Of a stretch of DNA of 64,000 nucleotides, positions 3,469-35,715 are shown in pieces. The notes beneath the pieces are model-generated. The model ran no database searches, had not been told where the DNA came from, and saw only the letters and a list, made by a program, of their open reading frames with translations. Numbering within the stretch: the stretch's first letter is position 1; each line of letters starts with the position of its first letter. The translations under genes were made by a program, and so were the position numbers. This DNA is from an uncultured virus (IMG/VR IMGVR_UViG_3300037067_008364). Lineage: Duplodnaviria; Heunggongvirae; Uroviricota; Caudoviricetes. Location of the stretch: positions 1-64,000 of the IMG/VR virus record IMGVR_UViG_3300037067_008364; one strand, given 5' to 3'.

Positions 3469-3544
3469 TGGTAGCGGGAGTCGGATTCGAACCGACAATC
3501 TCTTGGTTATGAGCCAAGCATCTTAACCATTAGAATATCCCGCA
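3469..3544 (-). tRNA. tRNA-Met(CAT), initiator-like
   Basis: Cloverleaf with CTTGG-CTCATAA-CCAAG, GTCGG-TTCGAAT-CCGAC, 1:72 mismatch, encoded ACCA. Confidence 0.92.
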
Positions 3545-4865: not shown

Positions 4866-5276
4866 TTATTCTCCTTTTTCTTTATCAACGAGATATCTAT
4901 GCATAAGAAGAATCATAGATGCCATTGATGCGATGATACAGACAAGTTTGGACTTATCAATTTCTTTGCCAGCTATCTCATCTTCTATCAATTTCTGAGC
5001 ATATTCTCCTATTGAACTGGCTATCATAAGTGAAAATCCACTCCCCAAATTACCATCAAAATCAGTCATTGTATTGATGAGTTCTTCAGGCATACCATCA
5101 TCCTGCATTTGTTTCCTCAGTTCTTCAACTGTTTTCGGTCTTTCCTTACCACTCTTTTTACCACTGCACATACCAACTATCGGACGGCTAAAATCATGCT
5201 CATTGCCTTTAAATATTTTGGCAAAGAACTCTTTGTTTTTCTTATCATTATCCATATTATCCATATTGTTCTCCAT
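4866..5276 (-). CDS. hypothetical protein
   Basis: 136 aa ORF directly downstream of a promoter. Confidence 0.7.
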   Translation of the reverse strand: MENNMDNMDNDKKNKEFFAKIFKGNEHDFSRPIVGMCSGKKSGKERPKTVEELRKQMQDDGMPEELINTMTDFDGNLGSGFSLMIASSIGEYAQKLIEDEIAGKEIDKSKLVCIIASMASMILLMHRYLVDKEKGE

Positions 5277-5308
5277 ACTTTAACAGGGGGCGCGACCGCA
5301 CGTTACGC

Positions 5309-5337
5309 AATATACAAAAAAACGTGCGAAAAGTCAA
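5309..5337 (-). promoter_or_regulatory. sigma70-type promoter TTGACT-N17-TATATT
   Basis: Exact spacing; intergenic. Confidence 0.75.
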
Positions 5338-5346
5338 GCAAAAAAA

Positions 5347-5375
5347 CGTAAAACGTTGCGCGACAAAAAGTTGCG
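5347..5375. promoter_or_regulatory. 29-bp imperfect palindrome, putative operator
   Basis: CGTAAAACGTTG-CGCGA-CAAAAAGTTGCG; related copies at 19465 and 35716. Confidence 0.6.
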
Positions 5376-5397
5376 TGCGCTCAGGTACTTTTTATAT

Positions 5398-6240
5398 TTA
5401 TACACGCGCCTCTTCAGCTTCGAGCTTATATCTCTTGTCGTCTTCCGCTACCTTATTCAGTATCCTCTGAACCTCTTCCTTGGCTTTGTCTATTGTTGCA
5501 AACTTGTCTGCTTCAGCTCCCGGTTTCATTGCAGGAAAATGAATACAATCCTTTGGAAGCTCCGGATGATAATTTTGGTTTACAGAACCATATCCACCAC
5601 AATTAGATCTATTAAAAACCCTTTCATCAAGTGAAAACATGATACGCCTAAGGAATGATTGGTTTGCAACATAGAAAGCCATGCTGTCGTGAGAGAAATC
5701 ATTATCCGTGTCGATATGGAAGTATGCTTCGATATGTTTAGACCCAACTACATCTTCTGCAAACTCATATACAACAAGGTCAACTCTATGTGTCATAAGT
5801 AATCTCTCAACAAGAGCCATAATTGCTGCACCACGGTTATATATATTATCCTGAGATATACTATACACTACAGATGCGCCAGTATATACAGGGATAATAC
5901 GCTTAAATCCTTCAGCTGGTATCACCTTTGCAAAGCATTCAGGTATTCCGGCAAGGTATGACCCTATATCAAGATAGTCACCTTCGGTGTCCATAAGAAT
6001 ACCCATACCATCAACTTCATCAAGCTTTGCGTTTATCTTGTCCATTGCATACTTCATCTTTGTTATTCCTTCGTGCCACCCATACTTCAACATAGTTATA
6101 GCTTCATCCCATGAATACTTACAGAAATCATGGTTACTATATTCACGTGAATGATGTGATTCAGGTGTATCTTTCACGAAGTCATACAGTTCCTTGACAG
6201 TATACATATGAATTTCTTGTCCGCCACTTTTTACAGCCAT
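5398..6240 (-). CDS. VWA-like partner protein of MoxR-type ATPase
   Basis: Adjacent to the AAA gene; D(I)GSYLAGIPEC, RGAAIMALV, FLRRI and GGYG motifs typical of this phage pair. Confidence 0.65.
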   Translation of the reverse strand: MAVKSGGQEIHMYTVKELYDFVKDTPESHHSREYSNHDFCKYSWDEAITMLKYGWHEGITKMKYAMDKINAKLDEVDGMGILMDTEGDYLDIGSYLAGIPECFAKVIPAEGFKRIIPVYTGASVVYSISQDNIYNRGAAIMALVERLLMTHRVDLVVYEFAEDVVGSKHIEAYFHIDTDNDFSHDSMAFYVANQSFLRRIMFSLDERVFNRSNCGGYGSVNQNYHPELPKDCIHFPAMKPGAEADKFATIDKAKEEVQRILNKVAEDDKRYKLEAEEARV

Positions 6241-6259
6241 ATGTACTTTCCTTTGTAAT

Positions 6260-7663
6260 TTATTTTACCTGCTCTTCAACCTTATCCTTAACATCTTTTG
6301 ATACCCCACGGTATATAAGCATATCTTTGAGTGCGTTCTCATCCTTGAAACCATTGGAGAGCAGTACACCACCACGGATAATGGCACGAGTTGATACGAT
6401 AACATTCTCTCCAAGTTTGTATACCGCTGCCCGGATACGCTGTACCTTACGACACCAATCTTTATTGGGGGCAAGATCATATTCAAGATTCTCATCGTAG
6501 TCGAAATTGAACACGACGAACCTGTCAAGAGTAGCACCGTCAATCGGATTACGTCCAACATATTTACGGTCAGCACCACGACCATATGTATTACCTGCGC
6601 ACATGAATACAAAATCTTCATGACGTTTGATGATCTGGTCAGGAAATGAACCTACATTATTGGACAATAGTGCATTGATAACAGTAAGCACATTAGGATT
6701 GCCAGCATCAATTTCATCAAGCAGGAACAACCCACCATTTTCATATGCCTTTCGAAGATGAGACGGAACATACTGCCCATGAGCATCAAGATATCCCATG
6801 AGGTCTGACTTTGTGGTCTGTAACCCGACAGAAGTAAAATAGAATTTCAATCCGAGACCTTTGGCTACCGAATCACCAACAAATGTTTTACCTGATCCAC
6901 TCGGCCCGACAAGAAATGTATCAAGCCTCATTTGTGCAAGCCTGAGAATGGTATCAAAATCCCTGTGCTGTTTACCAAGTTCAACCTCATAGTTCTTCAC
7001 TTCATCACAGATTTTAATAATCTTTACACGGCTTAATGCCTCAATCTTTGTGTCGATAAGATCATTTAATTCAGGACGCGTAATGGGATTCAACTTATCA
7101 GTGAGTACACTTGCAAGAGAACCGGAAAATATTTCGGCAAGCATTCTCATCATTGCAGGAGACATGTTCCCTCCTGCTCCTGCACCATCATTACCATGCT
7201 GTTTGGCAAGTTCATCTAACATGCCATCGGATAACCGTATAGTTTCCTGTTCTTCGAATGCCCCGGTAAGTTTGTCATACAGCACAGCGATAAGCTGATC
7301 TTTTGTCTTTGATTTATATGTTCCCTTTTCTGATTCTTCATGGTCAACCTCATTGAGAACATTGAGCAAATCCTCTTTTACCATCTTCCCGATCATATCA
7401 GCAGGGATACCGTTATTGCTTTTAATATAACTCTCAAGAGTCACAACCTTATACATCACGTTCCCTATCCACCCCATAGGAACCTGTATATCAGAAGGAT
7501 TACCGGACTCATCGAGTTCAAACGCTAGATCGTCTTCACATATTTCCTTATAGTCTGTGATGATCCATGTATACTGCCTTCCTGTTTGAAGATGTTTGTA
7601 TTTTGCACCTGTAAATTCAAGATTCTGGCAGAATATTGAACCGATCTGATATTTTCTACTCAT
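6260..7663 (-). CDS. MoxR/CobS-like AAA+ ATPase
   Basis: Walker A GPSGSGKT, Walker B LLDEID, GNT...GRN..D.ATLDRF, STR. Confidence 0.9.
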   Translation of the reverse strand: MSRKYQIGSIFCQNLEFTGAKYKHLQTGRQYTWIITDYKEICEDDLAFELDESGNPSDIQVPMGWIGNVMYKVVTLESYIKSNNGIPADMIGKMVKEDLLNVLNEVDHEESEKGTYKSKTKDQLIAVLYDKLTGAFEEQETIRLSDGMLDELAKQHGNDGAGAGGNMSPAMMRMLAEIFSGSLASVLTDKLNPITRPELNDLIDTKIEALSRVKIIKICDEVKNYEVELGKQHRDFDTILRLAQMRLDTFLVGPSGSGKTFVGDSVAKGLGLKFYFTSVGLQTTKSDLMGYLDAHGQYVPSHLRKAYENGGLFLLDEIDAGNPNVLTVINALLSNNVGSFPDQIIKRHEDFVFMCAGNTYGRGADRKYVGRNPIDGATLDRFVVFNFDYDENLEYDLAPNKDWCRKVQRIRAAVYKLGENVIVSTRAIIRGGVLLSNGFKDENALKDMLIYRGVSKDVKDKVEEQVK

Positions 7664-7741
7664 AGCACCATCCTTGCGTTAAATAATTTTATTATTTATT
7701 GTACATCAACACTTATAGTAAATTAATATCTCCTTTAACTG

Positions 7742-9034
7742 TTATATTGTTTCGAGTAGTTTGATTGCATCTTGATAATGTAAAAATATATTATCATATG
7801 TATATTTGGAAATTTCTATATTACTCTCAAGTATCTTGCCATGATCGAAGTATACATTGACATCCATTGATGTTCCATATTCTTCTATTTGTGCGTCTGT
7901 CATCATCACATCACATCCGACTTTTGGCAGACTGTATAGAGGAATATTCTGATCATCGAAACTTTCACCATTGCTGGTTCTCGAACAGTCATCATCATAA
8001 TCATGCATTTGTTCAAGTTCGCCATAAAGTTTCTTCGCCTTTTGCAGTACACGCTTGAAGTCTGCCTTATGGATAATATATTCCTGAGTGACATATACAC
8101 ATTCACCATCAATCCTTGCATATCCATGCTGTTGCCATAGATGCTTGCAAGAATGATTGTCCATTGTTACACTAAATTTCTGATCAATATTTAAATGTAT
8201 CCCTTTCTTCATATCGGCAAACTTAACATCAAGTATCTTACTGAATATAGTATCATCTGTAATATATGTTAGATAATCAGCAATGTATAATTCATTGATA
8301 CAGTATACCGCCATTCTCGTATATGGATTACCATCTGTAAATACAATATCTTCAACAAGGTTTGAATTTTTATATATGACAGCGTAATTCTGTTCCAGTA
8401 TTTGACCATGATTATATTTTGATTGCAACATCTTTTTATCTTTCTTGACAGCCTGAAATGCATACAACTGTTTATGATCTATATACTCTTTGAGTTTTGA
8501 AAGTGCCTGTTCATCTGCATCACATCCCCTTAACACTTTCTTTACTTTATCAAATCCACCGCGCATCTTAATGTACTTTTCGGCATGCTTTATCACACCA
8601 TACGCATATGCATATCCATTGATACGTTTTGATGCCTTTCCTTTCTTCATAAGCGTTTCTATCTTATTTACATAAGAATGTATTTCGGTCTGCAACTCAT
8701 CATTCCCACCATTATTATCAATATGTATAGTTGGGCATATTATGAAAGTTACATCTTTTACATCATCCGGTTCAAGACAATAAAACTCAGTAATAACACA
8801 GCTTCTGTGTGATGAATCACTAAATCTGCATGTCATAAGTACATATACATGTCCATGTTTATCCTGTACTGATTTAAAGTATGCATGTTGAGTATCATAA
8901 TCATGTCCCATGACACCATTTTTATATGTTACTGAATCATGTATCCCGGAAAGATATGTATACCATTCACCACTTTCATGTCTGACCAACGCTCTTATAG
9001 CACTATTACCATCTTTATATTGTAACCCTGACAT
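7742..9034 (-). CDS. hypothetical protein
   Basis: 430 aa ORF, no recognised motif. Confidence 0.8.
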   Translation of the reverse strand: MSGLQYKDGNSAIRALVRHESGEWYTYLSGIHDSVTYKNGVMGHDYDTQHAYFKSVQDKHGHVYVLMTCRFSDSSHRSCVITEFYCLEPDDVKDVTFIICPTIHIDNNGGNDELQTEIHSYVNKIETLMKKGKASKRINGYAYAYGVIKHAEKYIKMRGGFDKVKKVLRGCDADEQALSKLKEYIDHKQLYAFQAVKKDKKMLQSKYNHGQILEQNYAVIYKNSNLVEDIVFTDGNPYTRMAVYCINELYIADYLTYITDDTIFSKILDVKFADMKKGIHLNIDQKFSVTMDNHSCKHLWQQHGYARIDGECVYVTQEYIIHKADFKRVLQKAKKLYGELEQMHDYDDDCSRTSNGESFDDQNIPLYSLPKVGCDVMMTDAQIEEYGTSMDVNVYFDHGKILESNIEISKYTYDNIFLHYQDAIKLLETI

Positions 9035-9217
9035 AGAACCCCCTTATTTCCCATTATTATTATTCAACGCTCTGCATACATTTTCAGCAAAATCCCTTGA
9101 AAAATATATACCATATAGTTGGCCATTACAATCTATTATATATACCTTGTTCAGTCCATCATATTCAATATGGAACGGCTTTCTCGATCTCCATTCATCG
9201 TCCGACCACTGCATACA

Positions 9218-9562
9218 TTATTCATCTTTTTCATTATCGTCATCTGGGTTGAATACTCTTAATATAAACGTGTTATTGTTTTCAAGCATTATGCCAAGTC
9301 CACCACAGTTTCTTTTCAGATTGTCAAGTTCGCTAAGCGATACAGAAATATTGTTCCCTTCTTTCATGACGAAGTAACTTACTATTGCCGATAATGTCAC
9401 AATAATTTTCTTAACTTCTTCATCCATACCTTCAAAGAACTCTTCACCTATGACAGATTCAGGACTTTCTCGTATGGCATCGTACATGTTGTCTGAATAG
9501 AACCCTTTAGTCTCATTCTTTTGTAGAATGTTCTTGATGATCTCTTCCCAGTGTTTATCCAT
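9218..9562 (-). CDS. hypothetical protein
   Basis: RBS, packing. Confidence 0.7.
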   Translation of the reverse strand: MDKHWEEIIKNILQKNETKGFYSDNMYDAIRESPESVIGEEFFEGMDEEVKKIIVTLSAIVSYFVMKEGNNISVSLSELDNLKRNCGGLGIMLENNNTFILRVFNPDDDNEKDE

Positions 9563-9565
9563 AAT

Positions 9566-9931
9566 CTACTCCTGTTCGATAGGATTTTCTTCCTTGATTA
9601 TTTCACGCAGTCTCAATATACCGCCTTTGATGTTGGTAATCATAGACATTGCCCTGCTACTTACCCCTTCGGCTGTTTCGATCTTCTCGAAATACGTTAG
9701 ACATTTATCACACATGGATATGACTTCAATGGTACTATATACTTCCTGATAATCACCATCAACTATACCTATACACATAGGATCAATCTGGTAAGTCCTG
9801 TCCTTTTTTTCACGTTCTATCTTAGCTGTTTCCTGCTGGTACTGCTTGTCCTGTTCTTCTGATATATCATCAATAATTCCACCAACCATCTGCATCTGTT
9901 GAATAATATAGTTTATATCATATGGTCTCAT
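9566..9931 (-). CDS. hypothetical protein
   Basis: ATGA overlap. Confidence 0.7.
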   Translation of the reverse strand: MRPYDINYIIQQMQMVGGIIDDISEEQDKQYQQETAKIEREKKDRTYQIDPMCIGIVDGDYQEVYSTIEVISMCDKCLTYFEKIETAEGVSSRAMSMITNIKGGILRLREIIKEENPIEQE

Positions 9932-10200
9932 ATACTTTTACCTAACCTTTTATTGATGGTTTCTCTATATGTTGATTCCAATTTATTATAGTTTGTATAT
10001 TCATGGGAATTTGTAGGTTTGTTATATAACCAGTTTTTAAATTCGATCATAAATTCACATTGATTACACATATTACATTTGATGCAGATAGTATAGTTTA
10101 AACCATCACATCTGTCTGCTTGGTTGCTATACAACTCAAATTTACAGTAACTCGTAAAATCATAAAACATATTGACTATTATATCATCAAACTTATCCAT
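9928..10200 (-). CDS. Cys-rich paralog family member
   Basis: CIKCNMCNQCEFMIEFKNW. Confidence 0.65.
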   Translation of the reverse strand: MDKFDDIIVNMFYDFTSYCKFELYSNQADRCDGLNYTICIKCNMCNQCEFMIEFKNWLYNKPTNSHEYTNYNKLESTYRETINKRLGKSI

Positions 10201-10441
10201 TCTTATTCACCTCTTCACGATATGACTGATACCATGAACTCTGTTTATATCCTATCATCAGTGGGCACTGATTCGACTTTTTGCATTCAGTTAAACACCG
10301 AATCTTTCTTGCCTTTATTGACAAGTTAGGATTTGGATATTTAAAACACTTCATCCATTTTTGCCATTCTGGAGTTAATGTGTTCAGTGCGACTAAGTAA
10401 TTTCCGAATCCACACATAATAGCATCAATCTTCATGATCAC
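10193..10441 (-). CDS. Cys-rich paralog family member
   Basis: CLTECKKSNQCPLMIGYKQ. Confidence 0.65.
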   Translation of the reverse strand: MIMKIDAIMCGFGNYLVALNTLTPEWQKWMKCFKYPNPNLSIKARKIRCLTECKKSNQCPLMIGYKQSSWYQSYREEVNKNG

Positions 10442-10715
10442 TCCGATAATAATTACTATTCTTAAACCGTATCATAGTTATACATGTGTTGACTGAATCA
10501 CACTTTTTAAGACAGTATCTTATTGGTTTATTGATATAATCTCTTAGTTTATCTGTATTGCTTTGATCAGAATATTTCTTGTTACAGTTATCCCATGTTG
10601 TCCATTCAATACCATTCTCATTACAGCACCAAAGATACATCTTGTACTCAAAATGCATCGTCTTGTCATATTTACGTCTGTATTTTATCTTCATGATCTT
10701 TCCTGTATTTAACAT
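10425..10715 (-). CDS. Cys-rich paralog family member
   Basis: CLKKCDSVNTCITMIRFKN; the true start may be the second Met. Confidence 0.6.
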   Translation of the reverse strand: MLNTGKIMKIKYRRKYDKTMHFEYKMYLWCCNENGIEWTTWDNCNKKYSDQSNTDKLRDYINKPIRYCLKKCDSVNTCITMIRFKNSNYYRSDHED

Positions 10716-10914
10716 ATCCTATTACGGTCTTACATGTATTAGCCTGTTTACACTTTGAACACACATCAAAGAATAAGCTAAAGTCACAATTAGTTCCCTT
10801 AAGTTTTTGGTCTTTGTCGTTGGAATAACAATGAGACAGACATTCCCATTCTTCACTCCTTGAATGAATATCATTCAGATATTTTCTATATTCTTCTGAA
10901 TCCCCTACTATCAT
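10672..10914 (-). CDS. Cys-rich paralog family member
   Basis: CSKCKQANTCKTVIGY. Confidence 0.65.
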   Translation of the reverse strand: MIVGDSEEYRKYLNDIHSRSEEWECLSHCYSNDKDQKLKGTNCDFSLFFDVCSKCKQANTCKTVIGYVKYRKDHEDKIQT

Positions 10915-11198
10915 TTCTTTTTATCCCTATATTTCCATTGTTTGAATGCGATCATCATTGGGCACTGGTTCTGATTTGGACAGTTCAATGGATGATAGTA
11001 CCGTCCTGATTTACTGATAGGTCTATGTATATTAGGACAATCAGCCATATGTCGCCATTCTTTTGAGTTAATATTAACATGATTACAGTGGAAGCTTCTT
11101 AGTTCTCGATTATATATATCAGATTCGTTCATCTCCTGCCATGTCTTGTTGGTAATTATTGACACGTTCTCTTCCTCCGATGGATAGTTTCCTGCCAT
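10911..11198 (-). CDS. Cys-rich paralog family member
   Basis: NCPNQNQCPMMIAFKQW. Confidence 0.6.
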   Translation of the reverse strand: MAGNYPSEEENVSIITNKTWQEMNESDIYNRELRSFHCNHVNINSKEWRHMADCPNIHRPISKSGRYYHPLNCPNQNQCPMMIAFKQWKYRDKKK

Positions 11199-11395
11199 AT
11201 ATCATCTATCTTGTCATCAGTTGTCCCAATATAACTGTCATTGATTACACTACGCACCAAGTCCATGACATCTTTCTTCGACATCTTGGATACTTCATAC
11301 TCGATAAGCTCACTGATCTTCTGAGCGCGTGTTACTTCAGGTTCCTGAGGTACAGGTACAGGTTTTACTTGTTTGATTACTTTTTTCTTAACCAT
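11156..11395 (-). CDS. hypothetical protein
   Basis: ORF track. Confidence 0.65.
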   Translation of the reverse strand: MVKKKVIKQVKPVPVPQEPEVTRAQKISELIEYEVSKMSKKDVMDLVRSVINDSYIGTTDDKIDDIWQETIHRRKRTCQ

Positions 11396-11973
11396 ATCAT
11401 TATACCCTTTTTATCTGCATAACATTTAAAATCCATTTTTAATACGTTCAATATCTTCCCGTCTTGCTTCATCAGTCATAATCAAAAGTTCATTAAGTAT
11501 TCTTACCATGTCTTCATATGGGAATGTAACAGCAATAAGCGGGTTAGGAGTTTTACGTTTTTGCATAGAACCCTACTGTAACAAACTTACCATCTCCTAC
11601 AGATATCACAGACATGCGTCTCGGTACAAATATCCCACTTCCGTTGCGCTGTGCGAATGTATGTTCAATTTCTGGTATTTCATGAACAATTGGTTGCGCA
11701 TATTCGATTGATACAATATTGTAATCCATTATATTTTACTCCTTACTATAAATGAAACACTCAATATAATTTTATACACCGATACCACAATCTTGATACA
11801 CCCGTGTTCCCATACGATTTCCACCCCGAACCGTCTCGCGTACTGAATTGAATACACATCAAGCCCGAATACCAATCGTCCGACAGTCAATGAATACATG
11901 ATAGGATAGTACTCATCAAAATACAGTCCACATTCACGGATAATCTTAGGGGTATATTTGAACAGAAATGATG

Positions 11974-12294
11974 TCATGCGTTACCCTGTACATTAAAGTT
12001 ATCTATGTGAGGTTGCGACAGAAGGTCATTCTGACCCTTGATATATCCATTGGTAAAGCATATTTTGGATATACGTATGATAACTTTCATGAACGTCTCT
12101 TCATCACTTGCAAGATATCTTATCCCTTTGTTGAAAGATACCGGGATATCCCCATGCTGTTGTGTTTCATGTGTAAGTTCATACAGTACAGACGATGAAA
12201 TTACCTTACACATTTCATCACATTCGGTAAGGATTCTATTTATTTCAGTCATTTCGTTATTATCAGGTGCTTCAGTTCCAAAAATGTTTTCCAT
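11974..12294 (-). CDS. hypothetical protein
   Basis: ORF track, RBS. Confidence 0.65.
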   Translation of the reverse strand: MENIFGTEAPDNNEMTEINRILTECDEMCKVISSSVLYELTHETQQHGDIPVSFNKGIRYLASDEETFMKVIIRISKICFTNGYIKGQNDLLSQPHIDNFNVQGNA

Positions 12295-12297
12295 TGA

Positions 12298-12537
12298 TCA
12301 GTCTCCCATGATGATATTATACCATTGTATAGCAGCATCATAATCGCGTTTAAAAGTAACCAGAAAAGCATCTTTATTATCCATTGGGCGAAACTCACTT
12401 ACGAGAATAGCTGTCTCCATACCATTCCGATCAATGATTTCAATATAATCCTTGCCAACAAGATGTTTAACAATAACAGGATTACATAAAAGTTTAGTAC
12501 GCCCGGTATAGTGTCCAATATCTCCGCGTTTTACCAT
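12298..12537 (-). CDS. hypothetical protein
   Basis: AGGAG RBS. Confidence 0.65.
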   Translation of the reverse strand: MVKRGDIGHYTGRTKLLCNPVIVKHLVGKDYIEIIDRNGMETAILVSEFRPMDNKDAFLVTFKRDYDAAIQWYNIIMGD

Positions 12538-12548
12538 GCCTTTATCTC

Positions 12549-13181
12549 CTAAATACTATAATTGTTTGATAATTTCTTTTTGATATTATTCCAATACCAC
12601 ATCACCGGACATTCGTCTCTATACGGGCATACTCCAGTACACTGTTCCTTTCTTTTTTGTCTGCTGATATGCATGTCTACAATAGAACCACCATGTTCAA
12701 AAGAATAATAATCATGATTTGTGCACCTACTTCCATTAGCCCAAGCATTGAATACTTCGGGTGGAATATCTACTGCATCTTTCATACGCTCGTATAATAT
12801 ATTATATTCATCATTAGTCAATGCATAATATTGTGTACTGTGTATAATGTCAGTTTTTAATGTTGTGTTGTACGGTACCGGTCTTTCTCCCAACAAAATA
12901 CGTCCAATTTCCTTTGATTTCATTTTATACGATATGCCAGTCAACGATTTTAACCATTCCCATTGTTTAATAGCTGGACACTCTGATGGATTATGAATAG
13001 TACACGTACTTTTTTTACAACACTTGTCATAAAAGTCATAATTAATTATACCACTATCGCTATGGCATAATCTAAGTTTCTCTCTTGATTCATCTGTAAT
13101 CCAGCTATCTTTCTTATGAAAAACAAATACTATCCAAAACAATTCATTTTCAGTTTTATTCATAAAATCATCTTTAGACAT
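12549..13181 (-). CDS. two-domain Cys-rich paralog
   Basis: CTIHNPSECPAIKQW and CTGVCPYRDECPVMWYW. Confidence 0.7.
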   Translation of the reverse strand: MSKDDFMNKTENELFWIVFVFHKKDSWITDESREKLRLCHSDSGIINYDFYDKCCKKSTCTIHNPSECPAIKQWEWLKSLTGISYKMKSKEIGRILLGERPVPYNTTLKTDIIHSTQYYALTNDEYNILYERMKDAVDIPPEVFNAWANGSRCTNHDYYSFEHGGSIVDMHISRQKRKEQCTGVCPYRDECPVMWYWNNIKKKLSNNYSI

Positions 13182-13200
13182 GGCTTTCCACCTCGACCTT

Positions 13201-13449
13201 TCAGGATTTAAACGATAAATAAGGATTAGCTTCTTTGTGTTTGTAGTAATTCAATACCTGATCAAGCACTTTTTCAAACATAGTAAACTGAAGTTCAGTA
13301 ATAACAACATCACTTGCTATCACATCATCATCATGTCCGATGAGCCTGACAAATGTACCACCGCTCGGATAATCCGCAATGGTATAGTTCTTCACTTCAG
13401 GATACAGTTTCTTGATACGCCCAAGACGTGTAATCAGGTATTCTTTCAA
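13201..13449 (-). CDS. hypothetical protein
   Basis: AGGAG RBS before a TTG start. Confidence 0.6.
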   Translation of the reverse strand: MKEYLITRLGRIKKLYPEVKNYTIADYPSGGTFVRLIGHDDDVIASDVVITELQFTMFEKVLDQVLNYYKHKEANPYLSFKS

Positions 13450-13490
13450 CGGCAGTCTCCTTTATATAATATTTATTGTTGAATTTATTG

Positions 13491-13970
13491 TTAAGATTTC
13501 CCTTGTCCCCACACATACGGTAAATTATCAGGAACATCCCATCTATATTGACCATAAAATACAGGATCTTTACGTAACAAGTTGGAACGATGACTATTTA
13601 CAAGATCAATAGTATACCAGTCAGGAATGATAATATTATTAAAAGTATAATCATTGAGCCGTGGCATGTTATTTTTGTACCCCTTGTATTCCCAAACCAT
13701 AAGACAAGTATCATGATACAGAGCAAGAGTATTCTCGTAACCTTTCCACATCTTTACTGCCGGATGGTTAGCCCATGCACCCGGGTTATCCCAATCTTTA
13801 TTAGCCCCGGTATTGATATCGTATATGGTACGAGCCTCAATGCGTTGTTTACCAAGACGCTTGTAATCAAGATGTTCAATAGCTGGCACAAATAACAATA
13901 CTATTAAAGCTCCTCCCGTATGAATTGCTCCTTGATATGGCATCTCACATAAGAATGTCTGCATAATCAC
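13491..13970 (-). CDS. pyrimidine-dimer DNA glycosylase / endonuclease V-like protein (MSMEG_6728-like)
   Basis: MQTFL...LDYKRLGKQRIEA...WANHPAVKMWKGY...SHRSNLLRKDP...YVW. Confidence 0.85.
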   Translation of the reverse strand: MIMQTFLCEMPYQGAIHTGGALIVLLFVPAIEHLDYKRLGKQRIEARTIYDINTGANKDWDNPGAWANHPAVKMWKGYENTLALYHDTCLMVWEYKGYKNNMPRLNDYTFNNIIIPDWYTIDLVNSHRSNLLRKDPVFYGQYRWDVPDNLPYVWGQGKS

Positions 13971-14144
13971 CTCTTTTACAGCACTATGTATTTTACCTGT
14001 TTCTCTACAATTTTTTTCTCAAGAAACACAAAAGATTCAATGTCCTCTTTCAAACATCCATGGTCTGTCAAAAAATCAACTGCACTGTCTATTGTATCAA
14101 ATTCTATTTCATTCCCATGACAACCGCTGATAAGAAAGTACACA

Positions 14145-14420
14145 TTATCTGCGTCTCCTTTTTTTTGAACACGCTATTGTTTCAATAATCTCTATTGCAT
14201 GATACGGGATAAACATCATATCTTCATATTCAGGGGATCGCTTATCAATTGGCTTCTGGTGAATAGACTGGAAATATCCACCATCTTTATCAATATCAAA
14301 CATGCGTGAATAAGCATCTTTAGATGATGTAAATTTTTCTATTTCACCATCCTTGTTTTTAACAAAAAATATCTTTCCACTTATAGTCGTTATCTGTATT
14401 TGATATATAATTGTATCCAT
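14145..14420 (-). CDS. hypothetical protein
   Basis: GAGG RBS. Confidence 0.65.
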   Translation of the reverse strand: MDTIIYQIQITTISGKIFFVKNKDGEIEKFTSSKDAYSRMFDIDKDGGYFQSIHQKPIDKRSPEYEDMMFIPYHAIEIIETIACSKKRRRR

Positions 14421-14821
14421 TGTTGATTATACCTCACATAATTTTACAAACAGGGGATAAAGCTGCCCGGCAATACCCCCTGTTCGGGTCATTTGAATAA
14501 GAATAAAACAGGTCTGACTTAATGCATTACATCAATACACGAGTAGTACACGAAAATACATAGATTATTTCATCACCATCTCCTTTCCTTATTAATTATC
14601 TATTTATGTATCCATTCTTTTTAATACAACCACCACACTGAATCTCTCATTTCTTAGTTGTGTATCTGTTAAAATGGAATGCGACTATTTGCACATTATT
14701 GCACTGAATGCACCTTTGCACATATGCAGTGTTAAATATTTCACATGTTTTAGCTGTTAGTACCAACATTACATATGATATTTTACGTTTTGTATGATAC
14801 CATAGCATACGCATATTGACA

Positions 14822-15007
14822 TCACTTTCTCTTGATTGGATAATGATGACCATCTTTCTTGGGATGGTGAGACGGTTCCCTTTTCACTCCGAACAACCAG
14901 TGATCTTCTCCTTTTGATACATGACCACCATGTTCATTTCTGTATGCTTTCGCATCTCTCTTGTTGGAAAAGTATTTTGTAGCAACTCGAAACAATCTTA
15001 ATGACAT
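14822..15007 (-). CDS. small basic hypothetical protein
   Basis: GAGGAGG RBS; YFSNKRDAK..R motif. Confidence 0.65.
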   Translation of the reverse strand: MSLRLFRVATKYFSNKRDAKAYRNEHGGHVSKGEDHWLFGVKREPSHHPKKDGHHYPIKRK

Positions 15008-15176
15008 AATTATTCCTCCTCGTCTTCGTCTTCAAACTCCAAAATAGCAATAGGATATATATCCCAATTATAGTCACTTGGATCATCTACACCCAAAAGA
15101 GCGAGAAGTTCCTGCTGTTTCTCTTCAATTAAATCATCGAACATGACAGTGAAAGATTGCATTTGTCGCCTCACTA

Positions 15177-15494
15177 TTATAATTTAACTGAATGATGGAA
15201 TACTCCCGGAATCACTATATCCGTTACCTTTCGACTGTTCTGGAACATCCTGTTGCCCTTCAGATACTTCTTGATATCACCGCGTATCTTTCTGAGAATC
15301 CCTGCATCACTCCAATTAACACCGATAAGCGTACGTACAAATATACGAAAGTCATTCTGCTGGAACAGATACACCTTGACTTCCCGCATCTCAGCAACAG
15401 GTGTATTGTGCACTGTTTCTGCATCCCCATAAATGATCTTGTGTATATCAGGGATGCTGTCGCGGTTTGTCAAGATTTCAGATGTCCCGTTCAT
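15177..15494 (-). CDS. hypothetical protein
   Basis: GAGG RBS. Confidence 0.65.
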   Translation of the reverse strand: MNGTSEILTNRDSIPDIHKIIYGDAETVHNTPVAEMREVKVYLFQQNDFRIFVRTLIGVNWSDAGILRKIRGDIKKYLKGNRMFQNSRKVTDIVIPGVFHHSVKL

Positions 15495-15555
15495 TTGTTC
15501 ACCTCTCTTTGTTAAGACAAGATTAAATAATATGCTGTTTCGTTTATATGTATCA

Positions 15556-15759
15556 TTATGGTTTCACAATTACGATCATTGCCGTCGCAATCTTATACCC
15601 AAGATGTTCCAATGCTTTAGTAACTCTTTCAGGTGTTGCTTCATCATCAAGCGTTACTGGTAAAATGACCATATGATCATCCATATCAGGAGTACACGGG
15701 GAAAACCCGTCTTCTTTAAGTTTGGCAATCAACTCTAACCTTTTCTTTTTGATTGACAT
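15556..15759 (-). CDS. hypothetical protein
   Basis: GAGG RBS. Confidence 0.6.
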   Translation of the reverse strand: MSIKKKRLELIAKLKEDGFSPCTPDMDDHMVILPVTLDDEATPERVTKALEHLGYKIATAMIVIVKP

Positions 15760-16041
15760 CAGTTCACCTCTTCCTCATCAAACGAGTCAAGACCAAGGAC
15801 AACCTCACTCTTAGTGATACCACTACCGCACTTGACCAAGTACTCATGGCATTCTTCATGGTATGACAGCATGGCAGTCTCCTTAGAATAATGATCCAAT
15901 GAGTCCTAACGATAATACTATTGCACCGAAAATCAATTTCTTCTTGGTGTCATTAGTCATCCATAACATTCCACAAAAGAACCACATGGCATATATACAA
16001 GCATATCTTAACGGTGACATATTATTATCTCCTTAGATTAA

Positions 16042-16566
16042 TTACCATAACTCTTTCTTCGGTGTATAATACGAAAATGATGCATTAGTCTGCTCAAAAT
16101 CATTAACCATTCCATTATAATCATGGTACAAGTTATGTCTGGCAATGTAGTTATTTATACTACTCCTGATTTTATTTATCATACTAATTTTTATCAATAT
16201 GTTAAATAATAAATCAATTATATTGCAATACATCAATCCAATTCTTATTAATAACTTATGATACAATCTCACTTGTCTGCGATTGTTGATTGCAGTTGTT
16301 ATTTCAACAAGAATGCTATCCAGTTCTTTATAAATTCTATTGATAATATCATATTTTGTATCACGTTGATACTGAGACACATAGTTCTTGAATTTTACTT
16401 CTTCCACATCATCTGTGTATACTGCTTCTATTAATAGATTAATATATCCAGATGAATAATACTCTTTCTGCCTGCTATCGACTTCTACCATGAACCTGAA
16501 TCCTCTGTATTCTAACCATTGATTCATGATTTCTTCAAATATGCTAATATTTTTGTCAGATCCCAT
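16042..16566 (-). CDS. hypothetical protein
   Basis: GAGGAG RBS, 174 aa. Confidence 0.7.
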   Translation of the reverse strand: MGSDKNISIFEEIMNQWLEYRGFRFMVEVDSRQKEYYSSGYINLLIEAVYTDDVEEVKFKNYVSQYQRDTKYDIINRIYKELDSILVEITTAINNRRQVRLYHKLLIRIGLMYCNIIDLLFNILIKISMINKIRSSINNYIARHNLYHDYNGMVNDFEQTNASFSYYTPKKELW

Positions 16567-16620
16567 AACGTCAACTCCTCATTTATCATCTCGAAACAGA
16601 TTTTGGGATCACAAAGCAAA

Positions 16621-16684
16621 TGCCCCCGGCGCGGGAATCGAACCCGTGTGCGCACTCTTGGAACCTCTCCGTCCACCGGGGGCA
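16621..16684 (-). ncRNA. minimal tRNA-like element (acceptor-like stem + T arm, no normal D or anticodon arm)
   Basis: TGCCCCCGG...ACGGG-TTCGATT-CCCGC-GCCGGGGGCA, intergenic. Confidence 0.6.
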
Positions 16685-16877
16685 ATAGTTCAACGTTTAT
16701 TAACAATACGTTCCAGTTTATCAATACGTTTGCTCAATAACTCAAGAATAGTATTGATATTATTCAAAGTATTGGTTATTGACTGCAACGATTCCAATAA
16801 GTCATCAATTACATTTGCCATAGTGACCTCACTTATATTATATTAAGTAATAGGTAGCATCCGTTTACCACATCGGA

Positions 16878-17111
16878 TTACCTGATCTTACACTCATCAG
16901 ACACATGATACAACTCACAATTCCATTCTGTCACTGCCCCATATTCGTACAGTCCCCGCTTGATCGGAACCCGTACTCTTTCAGGATTGCGTTTCCATGT
17001 CTGCACACATCCGTTCACTCTCCACCGCTCACAGGAACCGTCTTTGTTCTTATATGCAGAGTGATGGAGTATATCCCCATGTTTCAGTGACTTTGCTTGT
17101 TCGAGTGTCAT
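16878..17111 (-). CDS. conserved phage hypothetical protein
   Basis: RWRVNG..QTWKR.P...RVPIK.GLY motif. Confidence 0.75.
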   Translation of the reverse strand: MTLEQAKSLKHGDILHHSAYKNKDGSCERWRVNGCVQTWKRNPERVRVPIKRGLYEYGAVTEWNCELYHVSDECKIR

Positions 17112-17132
17112 CGGATTATCCCTTTATCAGTG

Positions 17133-17354
17133 TTATACTTTCCACTCAGATACTCTAAGTACAGTAATCCATAGCCCATTTATAATATATCCTGTATGTA
17201 CAGTACTTCCATCTTTCTTGTCACAATACATTTTCCCCGCATGTTTACATGATAATTTTGCCAATAACTCTTTTCTTGGATACTTATTTAAAATATAATG
17301 ATTACCATATTGATCTATTCCAATATATCCTAACTGCTTACCTTCAGTACTCAT
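17133..17354 (-). CDS. conserved phage hypothetical protein
   Basis: IDQYG...PRKELL...KMY.D..DG..H.GY motif. Confidence 0.75.
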   Translation of the reverse strand: MSTEGKQLGYIGIDQYGNHYILNKYPRKELLAKLSCKHAGKMYCDKKDGSTVHTGYIINGLWITVLRVSEWKV

Positions 17355-17566
17355 TTCACTATCTCCCCAAGTCTCTTTTCCACGTTTTCATAATTCTCTT
17401 TCCCGGTAATGAACAATTATTAGCCTTCAACTGACCATACAAACCATAGCCATCTATATACTGGAGGATTACATTCCAATGTTAATCTTTTTGGTATCAT
17501 ATATCTATACCATATTTTCTTGTTACTATGTATCTTTATATCTGAATTTAATTTTATAATAGCCAT

Positions 17567-17595
17567 AATATCACTCTCCATATTTATCTTGTCAA
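17567..17595 (-). promoter_or_regulatory. sigma70-type promoter TTGACA-N17-GATATT
   Basis: Consensus -35 and spacing. Confidence 0.55.
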
Positions 17596-17838
17596 TTCAC
17601 TCAGTCTTTTTTCCAGCGAGTACTTTTCAAGACACAGCCTATCATATACTACCTGCCGTGTCCCTGAATCACTCAGTTTCTGCTCTATCATGTCCAGACG
17701 TTTCTCAATAGCTAACCGTTCCGGCAACCATCCCTTATAATACTGCTTGTTACCTGATATGCACTGCTTGATACGCTTCTCTAACAGTCCCTTTGTAGAG
17801 CGATTAGGGATTAAACGAGCATCTGAACAAGATTTCAT
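17584..17838 (-). CDS. hypothetical protein
   Basis: GGAG RBS. Confidence 0.55.
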   Translation of the reverse strand: MKSCSDARLIPNRSTKGLLEKRIKQCISGNKQYYKGWLPERLAIEKRLDMIEQKLSDSGTRQVVYDRLCLEKYSLEKRLSELTR

Positions 17839-18173
17839 GGCATCTCCGAGTGATTATAATTTCCGTTTCACTACGAAACTATAATATATATAACCTCATC
17901 AATTACTCTTTCATCATCCGCACTAAATACCCTAAATCCCCGTCTATCAAGTTAAGCATTTCTCTTTCACTACATGACATTACTGTGATACTGGAAAAGA
18001 ATAAATAATCAACAATACAGTGAGCAAGCTTGACAGCCAGTATACTAAGAAACCGTCTAATCTTTTTCATGATATCCCCTAAGCATATTATATATAAAGT
18101 AAAGTACTGTACGCTTCCCTCGACGACTACCTACCTACCATCCCTATTTTACCAGAGTAGATATACACACTGG

Positions 18174-18237
18174 TAAATCTATAGAGATAAATCTACATGG
18201 ATAAATCTATCAGATTAAATTTATACTGGTAACATAC
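18174..18237. repeat. degenerate 14-bp-period tandem repeat (TAAATCTA core)
   Basis: Cores at 18174, 18188, 18202, 18216, 18230. Confidence 0.65.
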
Positions 18238-18823
18238 CAAGCTGATATCACATATATTATGCTACCAGCAATATAAAATTATTTCGTCAAGTTGTAAGTT
18301 ATTTACTAACAGTATGTTACCAGTATATAATCAGGTATCTGAAAACAGGTGAAAAAGCGCAAAGCGAACGAAAAAAGCGTCTCGAAAGTAAACTTGCAAT
18401 GCGTTTTAAACGCTCGCAAACAGCTTAAATTTTGCGTTTCGTATGCAACTGAATACCGAAGTACGTTTAAAGCGCAAAAATCGCTTAAAAAGCCGTTGGG
18501 CACTAAAACAGCGGTAAAAGTAGTGTACATCGGCAAAAAAACGCACGTTTGCATGCTATCCGGTATAACATACCTGTTTTCACAAGATAATTGACAGGAC
18601 AAGCGTTATTTGGTTTTCTAAGAGCAAAAAAAGCGCATACATGTTTCAGGTATAAAACCACTCTTCAGTGCAAGTCAATTCTCTTGCATACATGTATTAT
18701 ATATTCAGTATAAACCCTTATCTTATTGTATACTGTAGATTTAGTGAGGTAAACCATCAGAACAAAAATAAGACCGGACACACGTCAATAGTGTATCCGG
18801 TCGCGGAAATTACCTAATTACGA

Positions 18824-19090
18824 TCAGGCACCGGGGTCTTTAAGAATGAGAATGTTTGCTTTGTATCCTGGTTTTCCGGGGATCATCTGAAACCCGCCGG
18901 AACTGGCCACAATCTTCATCTTTCCGTGATCCCGCCCGGCTTCCTTGTCTTTGTCGTTCGGTTTTGTATAGCCGTAATCTTCGGTGAGATCGACATTCAG
19001 AGTCAGATCGGAACCGTCTATTTTGCCCTGGAGATTTGTGAACCCGAAAGATTTCGGTTTAACGTCAACATGTTTCGGATCGTTTGCCAT
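18824..19090 (-). CDS. small conserved protein (N....G..LTL.VDL...G...K..IVAS.GG family)
   Basis: AGGTAGGT RBS, GC3-rich codons, followed by a terminator-like hairpin at 18772-18802. Confidence 0.8.
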   Translation of the reverse strand: MANDPKHVDVKPKSFGFTNLQGKIDGSDLTLNVDLTEDYGYTKPNDKDKEAGRDHGKMKIVASSGGFQMIPGKPGYKANILILKDPGA

Positions 19091-19205
19091 GATGTACCTA
19101 CCTTGTTTAAGTGAGTGTGAGTGTGAATGTGAGTTTAGTGTAAAAGCCCGGTGTTACTGTGTTTTCCTATACCATATAAGTCCTTTCATATTAGGTGAAC
19201 GTGAG

Positions 19206-19349
19206 TTAATAGTCTTCACTATGTACCAAATTAAACCCGATTGCGTACTGTGAATTGTCTTGTTCATACTCTTCGGTTTCTACTATTTCCAGCAATTCAG
19301 AAATAGTCTGCAACATCTCAAGGCGTAATTGATTCTTGTTGTTTGGCAC
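19206..19349 (-). CDS. small hypothetical protein, first gene after the promoter
   Basis: GTG start after AAAGGTAGG. Confidence 0.5.
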   Translation of the reverse strand: MPNNKNQLRLEMLQTISELLEIVETEEYEQDNSQYAIGFNLVHSEDY

Positions 19350-19414
19350 GGTTAGCCTACCTTTGCGAAAGTGGATACAAGTCTCAAGGCACAAGCGTTT
19401 TTTGCAATGTGCAT

Positions 19415-19443
19415 AAAATACGAAAATCGCAAACGAATGTCAA
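19415..19443 (-). promoter_or_regulatory. sigma70-type promoter TTGACA-N17-TATTTT
   Basis: Heads the minus-strand early block. Confidence 0.7.
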
Positions 19444-19464
19444 GCGAAAAATTTCACGTGTTCG

Positions 19465-19493
19465 GCTAACGTGTTGCGCTGCAACATTTTACG
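19465..19493. promoter_or_regulatory. 29-bp imperfect palindrome, putative operator
   Basis: GCTAACGTGTTG-CGCTG-CAACATTTTACG. Confidence 0.55.
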
Positions 19494-19870
19494 CACATGT
19501 TCGACTCAGGTAAATCAGGCATCGGAACTGACGCTTACTCAGGTAGATTGACCATGTTAAACGGACAAGGGGGATATAAGATGGACAGGCGGGTAGCGAG
19601 TGCCTAGAATGTCAATACATCACCTTTTTTTCGGAGGAGGGGAAAGCGCCTATTTTATTTTTCCAGCACCTATGATTTTATTTGCAGTTGTTAAGAATAT
19701 TCTATTAGCCTGCGGAGTTACAACGCTAAAATGTGGAGGTGAGATGTGGGGTTAGCACCGTCGGTAAAACGGGGGTTGTGGTATTGGGCCAGCACCGCAG
19801 GTAGCCAACGCTTACTGCGGCGAAGGGCGAGTCGGATACGTGTAAAAGTTTACAGGATGCCGGGGCTCCC

Positions 19871-19928
19871 ATTGTAACGCCATGTAACACCATATAACTA
19901 CATGTAACACCATATAACTATATGTTAA
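19871..19928. repeat. 10-bp-period tandem repeat (2 exact copies of CATGTAACACCATATAACTA)
   Basis: Direct reading of the sequence. Confidence 0.85.
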
Positions 19929-20628
19929 GTGCAGGGGTCGGGGTTAACATAGTGGTACGATGCCGGTGAGAAGTGAGTGAGAAGTACCGGGGAAAGTTAT
20001 ACGGGGTTTACAAGCGGGGTTTTACAAATTGTATACACTTATAAATAATTGGTGACATTTTGTCTGATAATATTAAGTTGCCGTTGGTATCGTTATATGT
20101 CACTTACGGCAAACTTATATTATGAATTTACGTCAAAACTAGTGCACCTTTGAACAGTATTTTCTGGGTTTTTACAGGCGTTTTTAGCGATTTCGCATTA
20201 CAATAACACAATATCGTTATAATATGATATACCATGTCCTGTAACATTTTACACACACCATCTCATACTTTACATGAACATTGAAAAAACACTTACGCAT
20301 TTTGTATGACAAGAAAGTGTATATAACACAACAACTTACGAAGTGGCTATGTCACCTAAGTGTTTATTACTATATAGTGATAAAGGGTATAATCTAATAT
20401 AGAAATGTGATATACGTCACAAAACGCATATTTCGGTGTAAATCAATACACTAAATTATAAAAAATATAGTAACATAGTAATATTGCTATATCCGACCAA
20501 GAAAGATACGCATGCGTACAAAAAATCACCTATATTACGGAATCACGATATTGCGTAAGTTGTTGATGTGCTGGCTGTTAAGTATATTATTACAAGTGTA
20601 GTAGCAACGAGAAGACCTACCCATATAT

Positions 20629-20657
20629 AATATAACATTTTTTATTTAATTTGTCAA
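20629..20657 (-). promoter_or_regulatory. sigma70-type promoter TTGACA-N17-TATATT
   Basis: Consensus; fires into the non-coding region. Confidence 0.65.
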
Positions 20658-20900
20658 TAGACATCTGCAAAATATTATAGCACAAAAAACGGATTCGTGC
20701 TATTTAGCTATTTTATTTCTATAAGTAGGCGCAAATACTTAACTTAAGTGGTGTAAAAAAAAGTGTATGACAGTATACGTAAAATTTCGTGTATACTGTC
20801 ATACAAAAAGTAATATTACTATATCATAATATACGAACATACTAATTAAATAAAAAAGAAGCAGTTGTTTTGTTACTCTTCTTTCCGCGTTTCTATAAGT

Positions 20901-20929
20901 AATATAATCTTTTTTTCGTGTTTTGTCAA
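20901..20929 (-). promoter_or_regulatory. sigma70-type promoter TTGACA-N17-TATATT
   Basis: Consensus; a hairpin plus U-tract follows about 50 nt downstream. Confidence 0.65.
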
Positions 20930-21106
20930 GAGTGTCGCAGAGGTTTTTTAATGCAGAATTAAATGCAGTAATTGTTTTTTGTATCACGTTCTATTTAGCT
21001 TTTCAAAGTTGAAACGGACAAGCAACCCTGCCCACGGTTATTACTATTTATAGTCTCATTGTTGTGGGTTGTCGGACTTATATTATAACATCACGGAAAC
21101 TATTTT

Positions 21107-21275
21107 TTATACAGGGGGCGTACGCCAGAAAGGAGGTGGTAGAAAAATAGCGTATATACTGCCCTTGGTTTTGAATGACTGTAGGTAGGTTGTGCGCAGT
21201 ATATATAATGCCCCCTGTATAATCAAAGGTAGGTAATCTTTATAGAAGCCGAAGAACTCACGACTCCGGTTTCTG
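21107..21275 (-). ncRNA. candidate structured small RNA with anti-SD motifs
   Basis: Downstream of promoter 21282-21310; 13-bp and 10-bp nested inverted repeats; CACCTCCTTTCT and two ACCTACCT. Confidence 0.55.
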
Positions 21276-21281
21276 ACGACT

Positions 21282-21310
21282 AATATAACACATTCGCGTT
21301 TGTTTGTCAA
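21282..21310 (-). promoter_or_regulatory. sigma70-type promoter TTGACA-N17-TATATT (leftward of a divergent pair)
   Basis: Consensus. Confidence 0.75.
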
Positions 21311-21394
21311 GCACTTTTCCATGCGCGCGTACATTTTTATATTTTCGCGTTCGCGGTTTGCGCAAAGTTTTTTTCGCGTTCGTGCGTTTTTTCC

Positions 21395-21423
21395 TTGACA
21401 ACTGTTGCGGAATTTCGTATATT
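21395..21423 (+). promoter_or_regulatory. sigma70-type promoter TTGACA-N17-TATATT (rightward of a divergent pair)
   Basis: Consensus; heads the plus-strand block. Confidence 0.8.
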
Positions 21424-21592
21424 GTATGCTGTAACGTAGCGCTATGGAAACTATATGGATATACAAGGCATTAGCGAAACAAGAATTAGCTATTCTGATA
21501 TAACTAATACACCGTATATTGGGAACTTGGGCAACTCCTTTGGTTGAGAGTCCATAAAACCCAAGACCAAAAAATGAATATAGAGGAATGAT

Positions 21593-22042
21593 ATGATGTA
21601 CATAAAGTATCTTTGGTATATTATCCGCCACAAATGGTTCGTGTTTATCGAGTGTTGCAAGTACGGGCTTGTCTGGAGAGGGATAGTTCATGATATGAGC
21701 AAGTTAAGACCGAGCGAGTTTATTCCATATGCGAAGTATTTCTACGGAGAGTGGGATATATACACAAAGGCTTATATTAACGATGCGTTTGACAAAGCGT
21801 GGCTGTTGCACCAGCACAGGAACCCTCATCACTGGCAATACTGGGTGTTGAGAGAAGACGACGGTGGTACAAAGACTGTACCTATACCTATGAAGTATAT
21901 AAAGGAAATGGTCGCTGACTGGCGAGGAGCCGGGAGAGCCATTAATGGAAAAGAGAGTAATGTATATGAATGGTATGATAAGAACAAGAGCAAGATGGTG
22001 ATATGGCATCATACTAGACATAGAATAGAGAATATATTGTAA
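21593..22042 (+). CDS. DUF5662-like HD-type protein
   Basis: HK..V...HDMSK...AWLLH..RNPHHWQYW...EMVADW. Confidence 0.85.
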   Translation: MMYIKYLWYIIRHKWFVFIECCKYGLVWRGIVHDMSKLRPSEFIPYAKYFYGEWDIYTKAYINDAFDKAWLLHQHRNPHHWQYWVLREDDGGTKTVPIPMKYIKEMVADWRGAGRAINGKESNVYEWYDKNKSKMVIWHHTRHRIENIL

Positions 22043-22061
22043 CATCAATAAAGAGATTGTA

Positions 22062-22337
22062 ATGAGTAATCCAAATACAGTACCATGTACAAGCTGTAAT
22101 GGAACAGGCAGGATAAACGGTGGGTGGTGCATAGACTGTCATGGCCTAGGGAGAGTGCACCCAAATACGCCGATGCCAAGTTTCTCATATTACTTCAGGA
22201 GAGATATCACAATATCATATAACTATCAATATCAAGGATTTGTTGATACTTACGATGAAGCGATAGAACGCATGGCACAACAGCTAGCCGATGAAATAGA
22301 CAATGAAGTATTAAACGAAATAATTAATAATTCTTAA
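22062..22337 (+). CDS. DnaJ-type zinc-finger protein
   Basis: CTSCNGTG...CIDCHGLG. Confidence 0.7.
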   Translation: MSNPNTVPCTSCNGTGRINGGWCIDCHGLGRVHPNTPMPSFSYYFRRDITISYNYQYQGFVDTYDEAIERMAQQLADEIDNEVLNEIINNS

Positions 22338-22350
22338 AAGGGAATCGCAT

Positions 22351-35624: not shown

Positions 35625-35667
35625 TCTCCGATTTTAAATTTTTACGTTGCGCATTTTTCACGCCACT

Positions 35668-35696: not shown

Positions 35697-35715
35697 GAAT
35701 TTTTTTCAAATTTCA

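Follow-up and report, generated by a model that had tools for sequence, protein, structure and literature searches.

At positions 5297-5384 of the window, the whole stretch of 64 kb analysed here, a non-coding island of 88 nt is flanked by two minus-strand genes with the same direction (5398-6240 and 4866-5276). With a G+C content of 43%, it has no CC or GG step and carries 11 CG and 9 GC steps. It includes a predicted minus-strand promoter, P5337m (TTGACT-17-TATATT, 5309-5337), around which the CC/GG-free DNA extends from about -83 to +6 relative to the assumed start.

The window is the first part of a 94,377-bp virus record rated complete and has a G+C content of 38.5%. The gene map consists of simple ORF calls and "non-coding" is therefore approximate throughout. 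Matches to Pfam and PHROGs identify an SU10-type portal with adaptors, a large terminase, a major head protein, the anaerobic ribonucleotide reductase proteins NrdD and NrdG, and helicase and recombination genes; many ORFs have no assigned function. No DNA polymerase family was found among the Pfam and PHROGs matches of the scanned ORFs, which do include helicase, nuclease and annealing proteins. The genes are oriented to the left at 1-18 kb, to the right at 21.6-28.6 kb, again to the left at 28.7-39.2 kb and to the right from 39.3 kb on. Two tRNA genes are located at 2618-2689 and 3469-3544, one being a tRNA-Met and the other, with an irregular anticodon loop, remaining unassigned by ARAGORN.

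Among the virion genes, the portal gene (41371-44631, 1086 residues) contains an intein-like insert at about residues 510-890 with a LAGLIDADG_3 domain, and this insert also matches intein-bearing terminase, primase and helicase-loader families. At 51950-53791, the gene for the major head protein lies in two pieces (51950-52612 and 53489-53791) flanking a LAGLIDADG endonuclease ORF (52731-53417); the interruption looks like an intron, but no Rfam intron family was found in the window. The same virion gene block holds a sugar-nucleotide cassette (45953-49766) composed of a UDP-GlcNAc 2-epimerase, an NAD-dependent epimerase/dehydratase, an ORF of unknown function and a GT4-like ORF, and a run of 10 N is present at 49737-49746. 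NrdD also looks split (35905-38753), with a 666-residue ORF corresponding to Pfam NRDD positions 2-531 and a separate 54-residue ORF (38589-38753) corresponding to positions 531-562, the glycyl-radical end, which is located upstream of nrdG and not behind nrdD.

No relative was found in IMG/VR through the neighbouring DUF7192 protein or through the large terminase, and none was retrieved with a 19-nt island pattern. The DUF7192 protein has one homologue, at 36% identity, in a search of 5.8 billion proteins, and the large terminase retrieved from JGI metagenomes only one identical fragment of 1,463 nt (0 mismatches). The 41 NrdD loci recovered are not relatives of this phage and served as controls only. 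The nucleotide-sugar epimerase has matches at 36-47% spread over many phyla, which do not indicate the host. Identical contigs are present in groundwater, landfill and wastewater runs from four studies. Across runs X1-X4, the 17.5 kb at 5000-22500 are nearly unchanged, with one C>T at 6877 and one 2-nt deletion at 16203, both outside the islands, so that the islands show no strain variation in these runs.

The six islands and their predicted promoters

The original prediction had listed six stretches poor in CC and GG, and their coordinates and counts proved correct on recount. Besides 5297-5384, three of them are entirely free of these steps: 18349-18456 (108 nt, 40% G+C, 10 CG, 11 GC), 35664-35770 (107 nt, 31% G+C, 7 CG, 7 GC) and 39166-39328 (163 nt, 27% G+C, 8 CG, 7 GC). 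The last is the longest CC/GG-free run of the genome and separates the leftward, early-looking gene block from the packaging genes. Island 19389-19509 contains one GG, and 21270-21445 contains two CC and two GG together with the longest G+C-rich alternating purine-pyrimidine run of the genome (21320-21334).

All but the 18349 stretch had been said to overlap promoters, and indeed consensus sites were found in the other five and none in 18349-18456, which has a weaker promoter-like site, 18302-18331(+), just upstream. A coding origin of this island was rejected, as the overlying 81-codon ORF has neither a homologue nor a Pfam match. Our promoter pattern was TTGAC, 18 nt and TAnnnT, corresponding to a 17-bp spacer, and all zone positions given here assume a +1 located 7 nt after the -10 hexamer. 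The genome contains 12 such consensus sites, in or beside intergenic gaps, six of them within islands: 5309-5337(-), 19415-19443(-) (P19443m, TTGACA-17-TATTTT), the divergent back-to-back pair 21282-21310(-) and 21395-21423(+), 35668-35696(-) (P35696m, TTGACA-17-TATATT) and 39185-39213(-). These six score 10-11 out of 12 against TTGACA-like -35 and TATAAT-like -10 hexamers at 17 bp spacing. Island 39166-39328 holds a further, divergent promoter, 39263-39291(+) (TTGCAT-17-TATATT), before the small terminase gene. The other consensus promoters are A+T-rich and lie at 20629-20657(-), 20901-20929(-), 35859-35887(-) and 38866-38894(-) in the window and, beyond it, at genome positions 74471-74499(+) and 89896-89924(-).

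The sequences of the islands are alike mainly in their promoter cores. An exception is a 31-nt element at 5347-5377, which has 91% identity with 35714-35744 and is located just upstream of the -35 hexamer in both cases, at the same distance from it and in opposite orientation. The word CTCAGGTA occurs at 5380-5387, 19505-19512 and 19538-19545, marking the upstream edge of two islands; the window holds 4 copies of it where 1.1 are expected. CAGGTA, for which 24 copies are expected, is found 42 times, six of them within 18332-19803. The core TTGACA-N12-TTTCGTATATT is found in at least 116 stretches of viral contigs (IMG/VR loci L005-L120), often following an A-run and GC, and this extended promoter core is thus widely shared among phages.

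Part of the islands fall in a 3.5-kb stretch without clear genes (18071-21592), located between divergent gene blocks and containing five consensus promoters. This stretch also displays a perfect 16-bp inverted repeat (18222-18237 / 18312-18327), "taccag/ctggta" repeats, 10-nt tandem repeats at 19875-19914 and 400 G-rich nucleotides at 19610-20030. Structured RNA was searched for at 18.0-21.7 kb, where no Rfam match at E <=1 was found; the G-rich part likewise has none, and it shows no excess folding (fold z-score 0.51).

A base-step rule anchored on promoters

The length of a CC/GG-free run is not special by itself: 21 runs of at least 88 nt occur in the 94,377 nt, mostly in A+T-rich coding DNA. 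However, only four of these, the zero-CC/GG islands, carry 14-21 CG+GC steps, whereas the other 17 carry at most 8. Among 20,000 base shuffles per island, none matched both the low CC+GG and the high CG+GC counts, and the binomial probability of so few CC/GG among the steps between G/C bases ranges from 6e-7 to 8e-5 across the islands. In a 100-nt scan of (CG+GC)-(CC+GG) over the whole genome (mean 0.32, sd 4.3), the five highest peaks (23, 22, 21, 19 and 17, at 21288, 5290, 18351, 19395 and 35645) are islands; all five are non-coding on the ORF map, and consensus promoters overlap four of them. Across 200 simulated Markov-1 genomes, the highest score per genome was 15.8 on average and at most 20, with values of at least 21, 19 and 17 reached in 0/200, a fraction of 0.025 and a fraction of 0.30 of the genomes, respectively. 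Therefore, three islands reach genome-wide significance individually, a fourth is borderline (0.025) and the fifth falls short of it (0.30). Two of the six thus count jointly only, the sixth, A+T-rich 39166-39328, owing its weight to the 15:0 ratio alone. In this 94-kb genome, all five top peaks have a 100-nt window with CG+GC >=18 and CC+GG <=2, compared with 3 distinct loci in about 911 kb of control loci.

Pooled over the islands, the ratio of CG+GC to CC+GG is 126:5, against 820:972 in other non-coding DNA (Fisher P 2.5e-34), a test that is biased because the island borders were picked as CC/GG-free.

Fixed windows from -100 to +20 are independent of the earlier island borders, although the two windows of the divergent promoters at 21.3 kb overlap by 46 nt. 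In these windows, the ratio is 123:17 at the six G+C-richer island promoters and, more mildly biased, 59:26 pooled over the six A+T-rich promoters. In contrast, 103 distinct promoters of other viral contigs that share the core TTGACA-N12-TTTCGTATATT give 618:621 and have a median G+C of 29% (P 1.6e-19 for 123:17 and P 4.8e-4 for 59:26 against these controls). Since these controls, the other non-coding DNA and the coding DNA (6377:6029, in agreement with the original remark that genes use CC and GG freely) all lack it, the bias is a property of this phage's promoters and not of promoters or intergenic DNA in general.

Around the six island promoters, the zone delimited by the nearest CC/GG steps begins between -75 and -151 and ends between -3 and +20, with 0-2 exceptions inside each, and it spans roughly the DNA contacted by the polymerase holoenzyme. 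The proposed link to sites read by host RNA polymerase is supported in this respect, the CC/GG-poor zone being anchored on consensus promoters (123:17 versus 618:621). The rule is strongest at these six G+C-richer promoters, which head or lie inside early-looking blocks of small genes, their "early" timing being judged from gene order alone. The G+C content is 34-42% in five of the six island-promoter windows, and 30-42% in the upstream DNA.

In the windows from -75 to -1, leaving out the core, the observed/expected values are 0.26 for CC/GG, 2.71 for CG, 2.48 for GC, 1.70 for AA/TT, 0.38 for AG/CT, 0.60 for GA/TC, 0.67 for TA and 0.81 for AT, whereas in other non-coding DNA the ten steps range from 0.84 to 1.13. 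The strongest depletion is that of CC/GG (0.10-0.26). Of the G/C bases in the islands, 172 of 281 (61%) have a base of the opposite purine/pyrimidine class on each side, compared with 28% in both the whole genome and other non-coding DNA. Neighbouring G/C bases occur at only 1.30 times expectation, and 88-96% of them alternate; therefore, the apparent CpG and GpC enrichment is mostly the mirror image of the CC/GG ban at unchanged G+C. The rule can be stated as pure A- or T-tracts joined by alternating CG/GC blocks, in modules of about 90-180 bp. Our results thus confirm that the feature is real, promoter-anchored and particular to this phage.

Several familiar features were rejected as descriptions of the islands. 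Eukaryote-type CpG islands exceed 200 bp and 50% G+C and have a high CpG content; with 88-176 nt and 27-43% G+C, the stretches described here are CpG islands by loose analogy only. A curvature with 10-11-bp phasing was rejected, A-tracts recurring at 9-12 nt with an observed/expected ratio of 0.80 (P 0.88); a recurrence at about 22 nt (21-24 nt) reached 1.62 (P 0.003) in a window chosen post hoc. Melting focused on the -10 was also rejected, as the nearest-neighbour stability profile does not single out this region. General Z-DNA potential was rejected too, a G+C-rich alternating run of about 10 nt or more being present in one of the six islands (21320-21334, 15 nt) and 42 times elsewhere in the genome.

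Sigma-70-type promoters with an UP element are exemplified by rrnB P1 and by strong early promoters of lytic phages. The island promoters resemble them in their consensus -35, near-consensus -10, 17-bp spacer and the A/T tract upstream of the -35. In each of the six promoters, the -35 hexamer is closely preceded by an A- or T-tract: in four consecutive columns, 5-8 nt ahead of the hexamer, none of the six has G/C, like a proximal UP subsite, and directly before the hexamer five to six of them have G/C. Only this tract is in register, the blocks further upstream not being aligned between promoters. In contrast to UP-element promoters, the upstream G/C of this phage occurs in alternating blocks only, with almost no CC/GG.

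Possible causes of the rule

The original prediction had invoked a bulky modification of virion DNA at CC/GG contexts, and our results do not support it: no enzyme gene was found and the restriction sites that bear CC/GG are purged. Pfam and PHROGs searches on 133 and 126 ORFs and six-frame searches recovered no base-modification gene. The latter covered the whole 94 kb and found no C5, N4/N6 or Dam-type methylase and no thymidylate-synthase-type hydroxymethylase, TGT/DpdA or PurZ-type gene (PF00145, PF01555, PF02086, PF00303, PF01702 and PF00709: 0 six-frame matches). The glucosyltransferase families PF09198 and PF11440 also gave 0 matches, but the controls were silent too, making this result uninformative. 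Genome-wide, CCWGG occurs 2 times (about 85 expected), GGWCC once (about 41-85) and GGCC 40 times (108-141), and other sites are purged as well, namely GATC (165, with 335-369 expected), CTGCAG (0, with 18 expected) and ATCGAT (2, with 13.6 expected). This purge speaks against a bulky adduct on every CC/GG, and the phage seems to escape restriction by site loss rather than by protection. Clusters of methylatable sites are known from phage and transposon promoters, such as the GATC clusters at Mu mom or IS10. The islands resemble these clusters in the local enrichment of short palindromic steps in promoters (CG and GC, hence ACGT and GCGC), but no methylase gene was found and no single site exceeds the dinucleotide expectation.

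In a broader form, an agent would read GG/CC on the incoming phage DNA at the start of infection, be it through a virion modification or as a protein or nuclease, and the first-firing promoters would be kept free of these steps, with escape pared down to their polymerase footprints. The ban does cover the polymerase contact zone, CC/GG is the most depleted step and no motif accounts for the ban; moreover, the cassette at 45953-49766 belongs to the virion module and most genes have no assigned function. However, known modification genes were not found, the purge of CCWGG, GGWCC and GGCC suggests unprotected contexts, and CC/GG is present within the spacer or next to the -35 hexamer of A+T-rich consensus promoters. 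The genes downstream contain CC/GG without restraint: no kb-scale GG/CC-free block exists in the genome, where the longest run is 163 nt and the lowest 1-kb observed/expected value is 0.69, and the control loci (910,827 nt) contain none longer than 257 nt. Together with the depletion of AG/CT and GA/TC, which such an agent does not predict, these observations make this reading unlikely in our opinion.

The lack of CC/GG could also be a by-product of the composition of regulator sites, if the islands were arrays of short degenerate sites such as CGCAA, TCGCAAAC and ACGTTAG. CGCAA occurs 18 times, against 1.8 expected when the expectation is drawn from the rest of the genome, and the two promoters sharing the 31-nt element at equal distance and in opposite orientation would agree with this. 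A comparable case is found at 1470-1580 of another viral contig (L038), where three TCGCAA-N5-TTGCGA palindromes around the same core, between divergent genes, look like a classic repressor-operator set, as far as their sequence tells, and give 12 CG+GC and 0 CC+GG. Both cases share the promoter core, the local lack of CC/GG and the many CG/GC steps. However, the thrice-repeated 17-bp palindrome explains the composition there, whereas no repeated word or dyad was found here. A repeated operator was rejected with an island-trained Markov model, which leaves only promoter-core words clearly over-represented among about 300-800 words tested (CGCAA 18 versus 10 expected; TCGCAAAC 3 versus 0.16; ACGTTAG 3 versus 0.2). 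Dyads are not enriched (11 versus 12.3, 61 versus 58 and 21 versus 26 expected), the L038-type operator pattern is at chance level (27 versus 24.5), the upstream blocks are out of register between promoters and no regulator gene was recognised. This explanation must therefore be regarded as doubtful.

Two further proposals concern what the islands avoid and where they came from. Around strong promoters, both strands could have been cleared of competing signals, namely -10-like TA/AT-rich hexamers and purine-rich, Shine-Dalgarno-like words (GG, AG, GA), so that nothing but A/T homopolymers and alternating C/G would remain. This would agree with the depletion of TA, AT, GG/CC, AG/CT and GA/TC, the enrichment of AA/TT, CG and GC, and the probable passage through several islands of transcription from genes or promoters upstream. 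This negative design appears improbable, given that the 103 same-core promoters in other phages show no bias, that it does not need a CC ban in the mRNA sense, and that the G+C content kept at 34-42% in five of the six windows is not explained by it. Alternatively, the islands could be copies or shuffled pieces of an ancestral low-complexity promoter cassette, inherited without selection, comparable to the PeSL (promoter-early stem-loop) cassettes of T4-type phages, which the portion of the literature consulted describes as repeated, recombining units of a sigma-70-like promoter and a stem-loop (PMC2839356). The cores are alike beyond their hexamers, the 31-nt element is common to two islands and a terminator-like hairpin, 35767-35798(-), precedes island 35664-35770; as in that portion of the PeSL description, strong sigma-70-like promoters stand before small early genes, with some shared sequence and one adjoining hairpin. 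In contrast to the PeSL units as described there, no stem-loop is conserved with each copy here, no terminator-like hairpin being present at 5150-5500, and the islands resemble each other in the cores and one 31-nt element only; a dinucleotide rule is absent from that part of the description (PMC2839356). The upstream parts cannot be aligned outside these segments, yet the ban is kept (123:17), and neutral point changes would erode it, so unselected inheritance seems very improbable indeed.

We therefore tentatively favour, with a probability of about 0.4, selection exerted through a protein that reads base steps or DNA shape over the contact zone of the promoters in this host-phage pair. The reader could be the polymerase with its alpha C-terminal domains or, alternatively, an architectural or silencing protein that must bind this zone or be excluded from it. 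This read-out is suggested because no repeated word, dyad or helical phasing was found and because same-core promoters elsewhere lack the rule, although selection is here inferred from one genome without relatives. The original prediction had offered DNA shape or a bound regulator as its second choice; the read-out of steps or shape is thus retained, while lenient Pfam scans of 61 early ORFs revealed no credible DNA-binding domain. In addition, the favoured and avoided steps cannot be ordered by flexibility in a simple way, TA being depleted and GC enriched, and island 18349-18456, with no consensus promoter inside, does not fit a polymerase footprint.

In bacteria, the strength and timing of promoters are usually attributed to hexamers, spacer, UP element and discrete operators, whereas in this phage a dinucleotide rule spans the whole contact zone. 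In the parts of the literature consulted, we found no description of CC/GG-free promoter zones in phages. If base steps or shape are indeed read by the polymerase or by a nucleoid or phage protein, these islands could give access to a level of promoter recognition or silencing outside current models.
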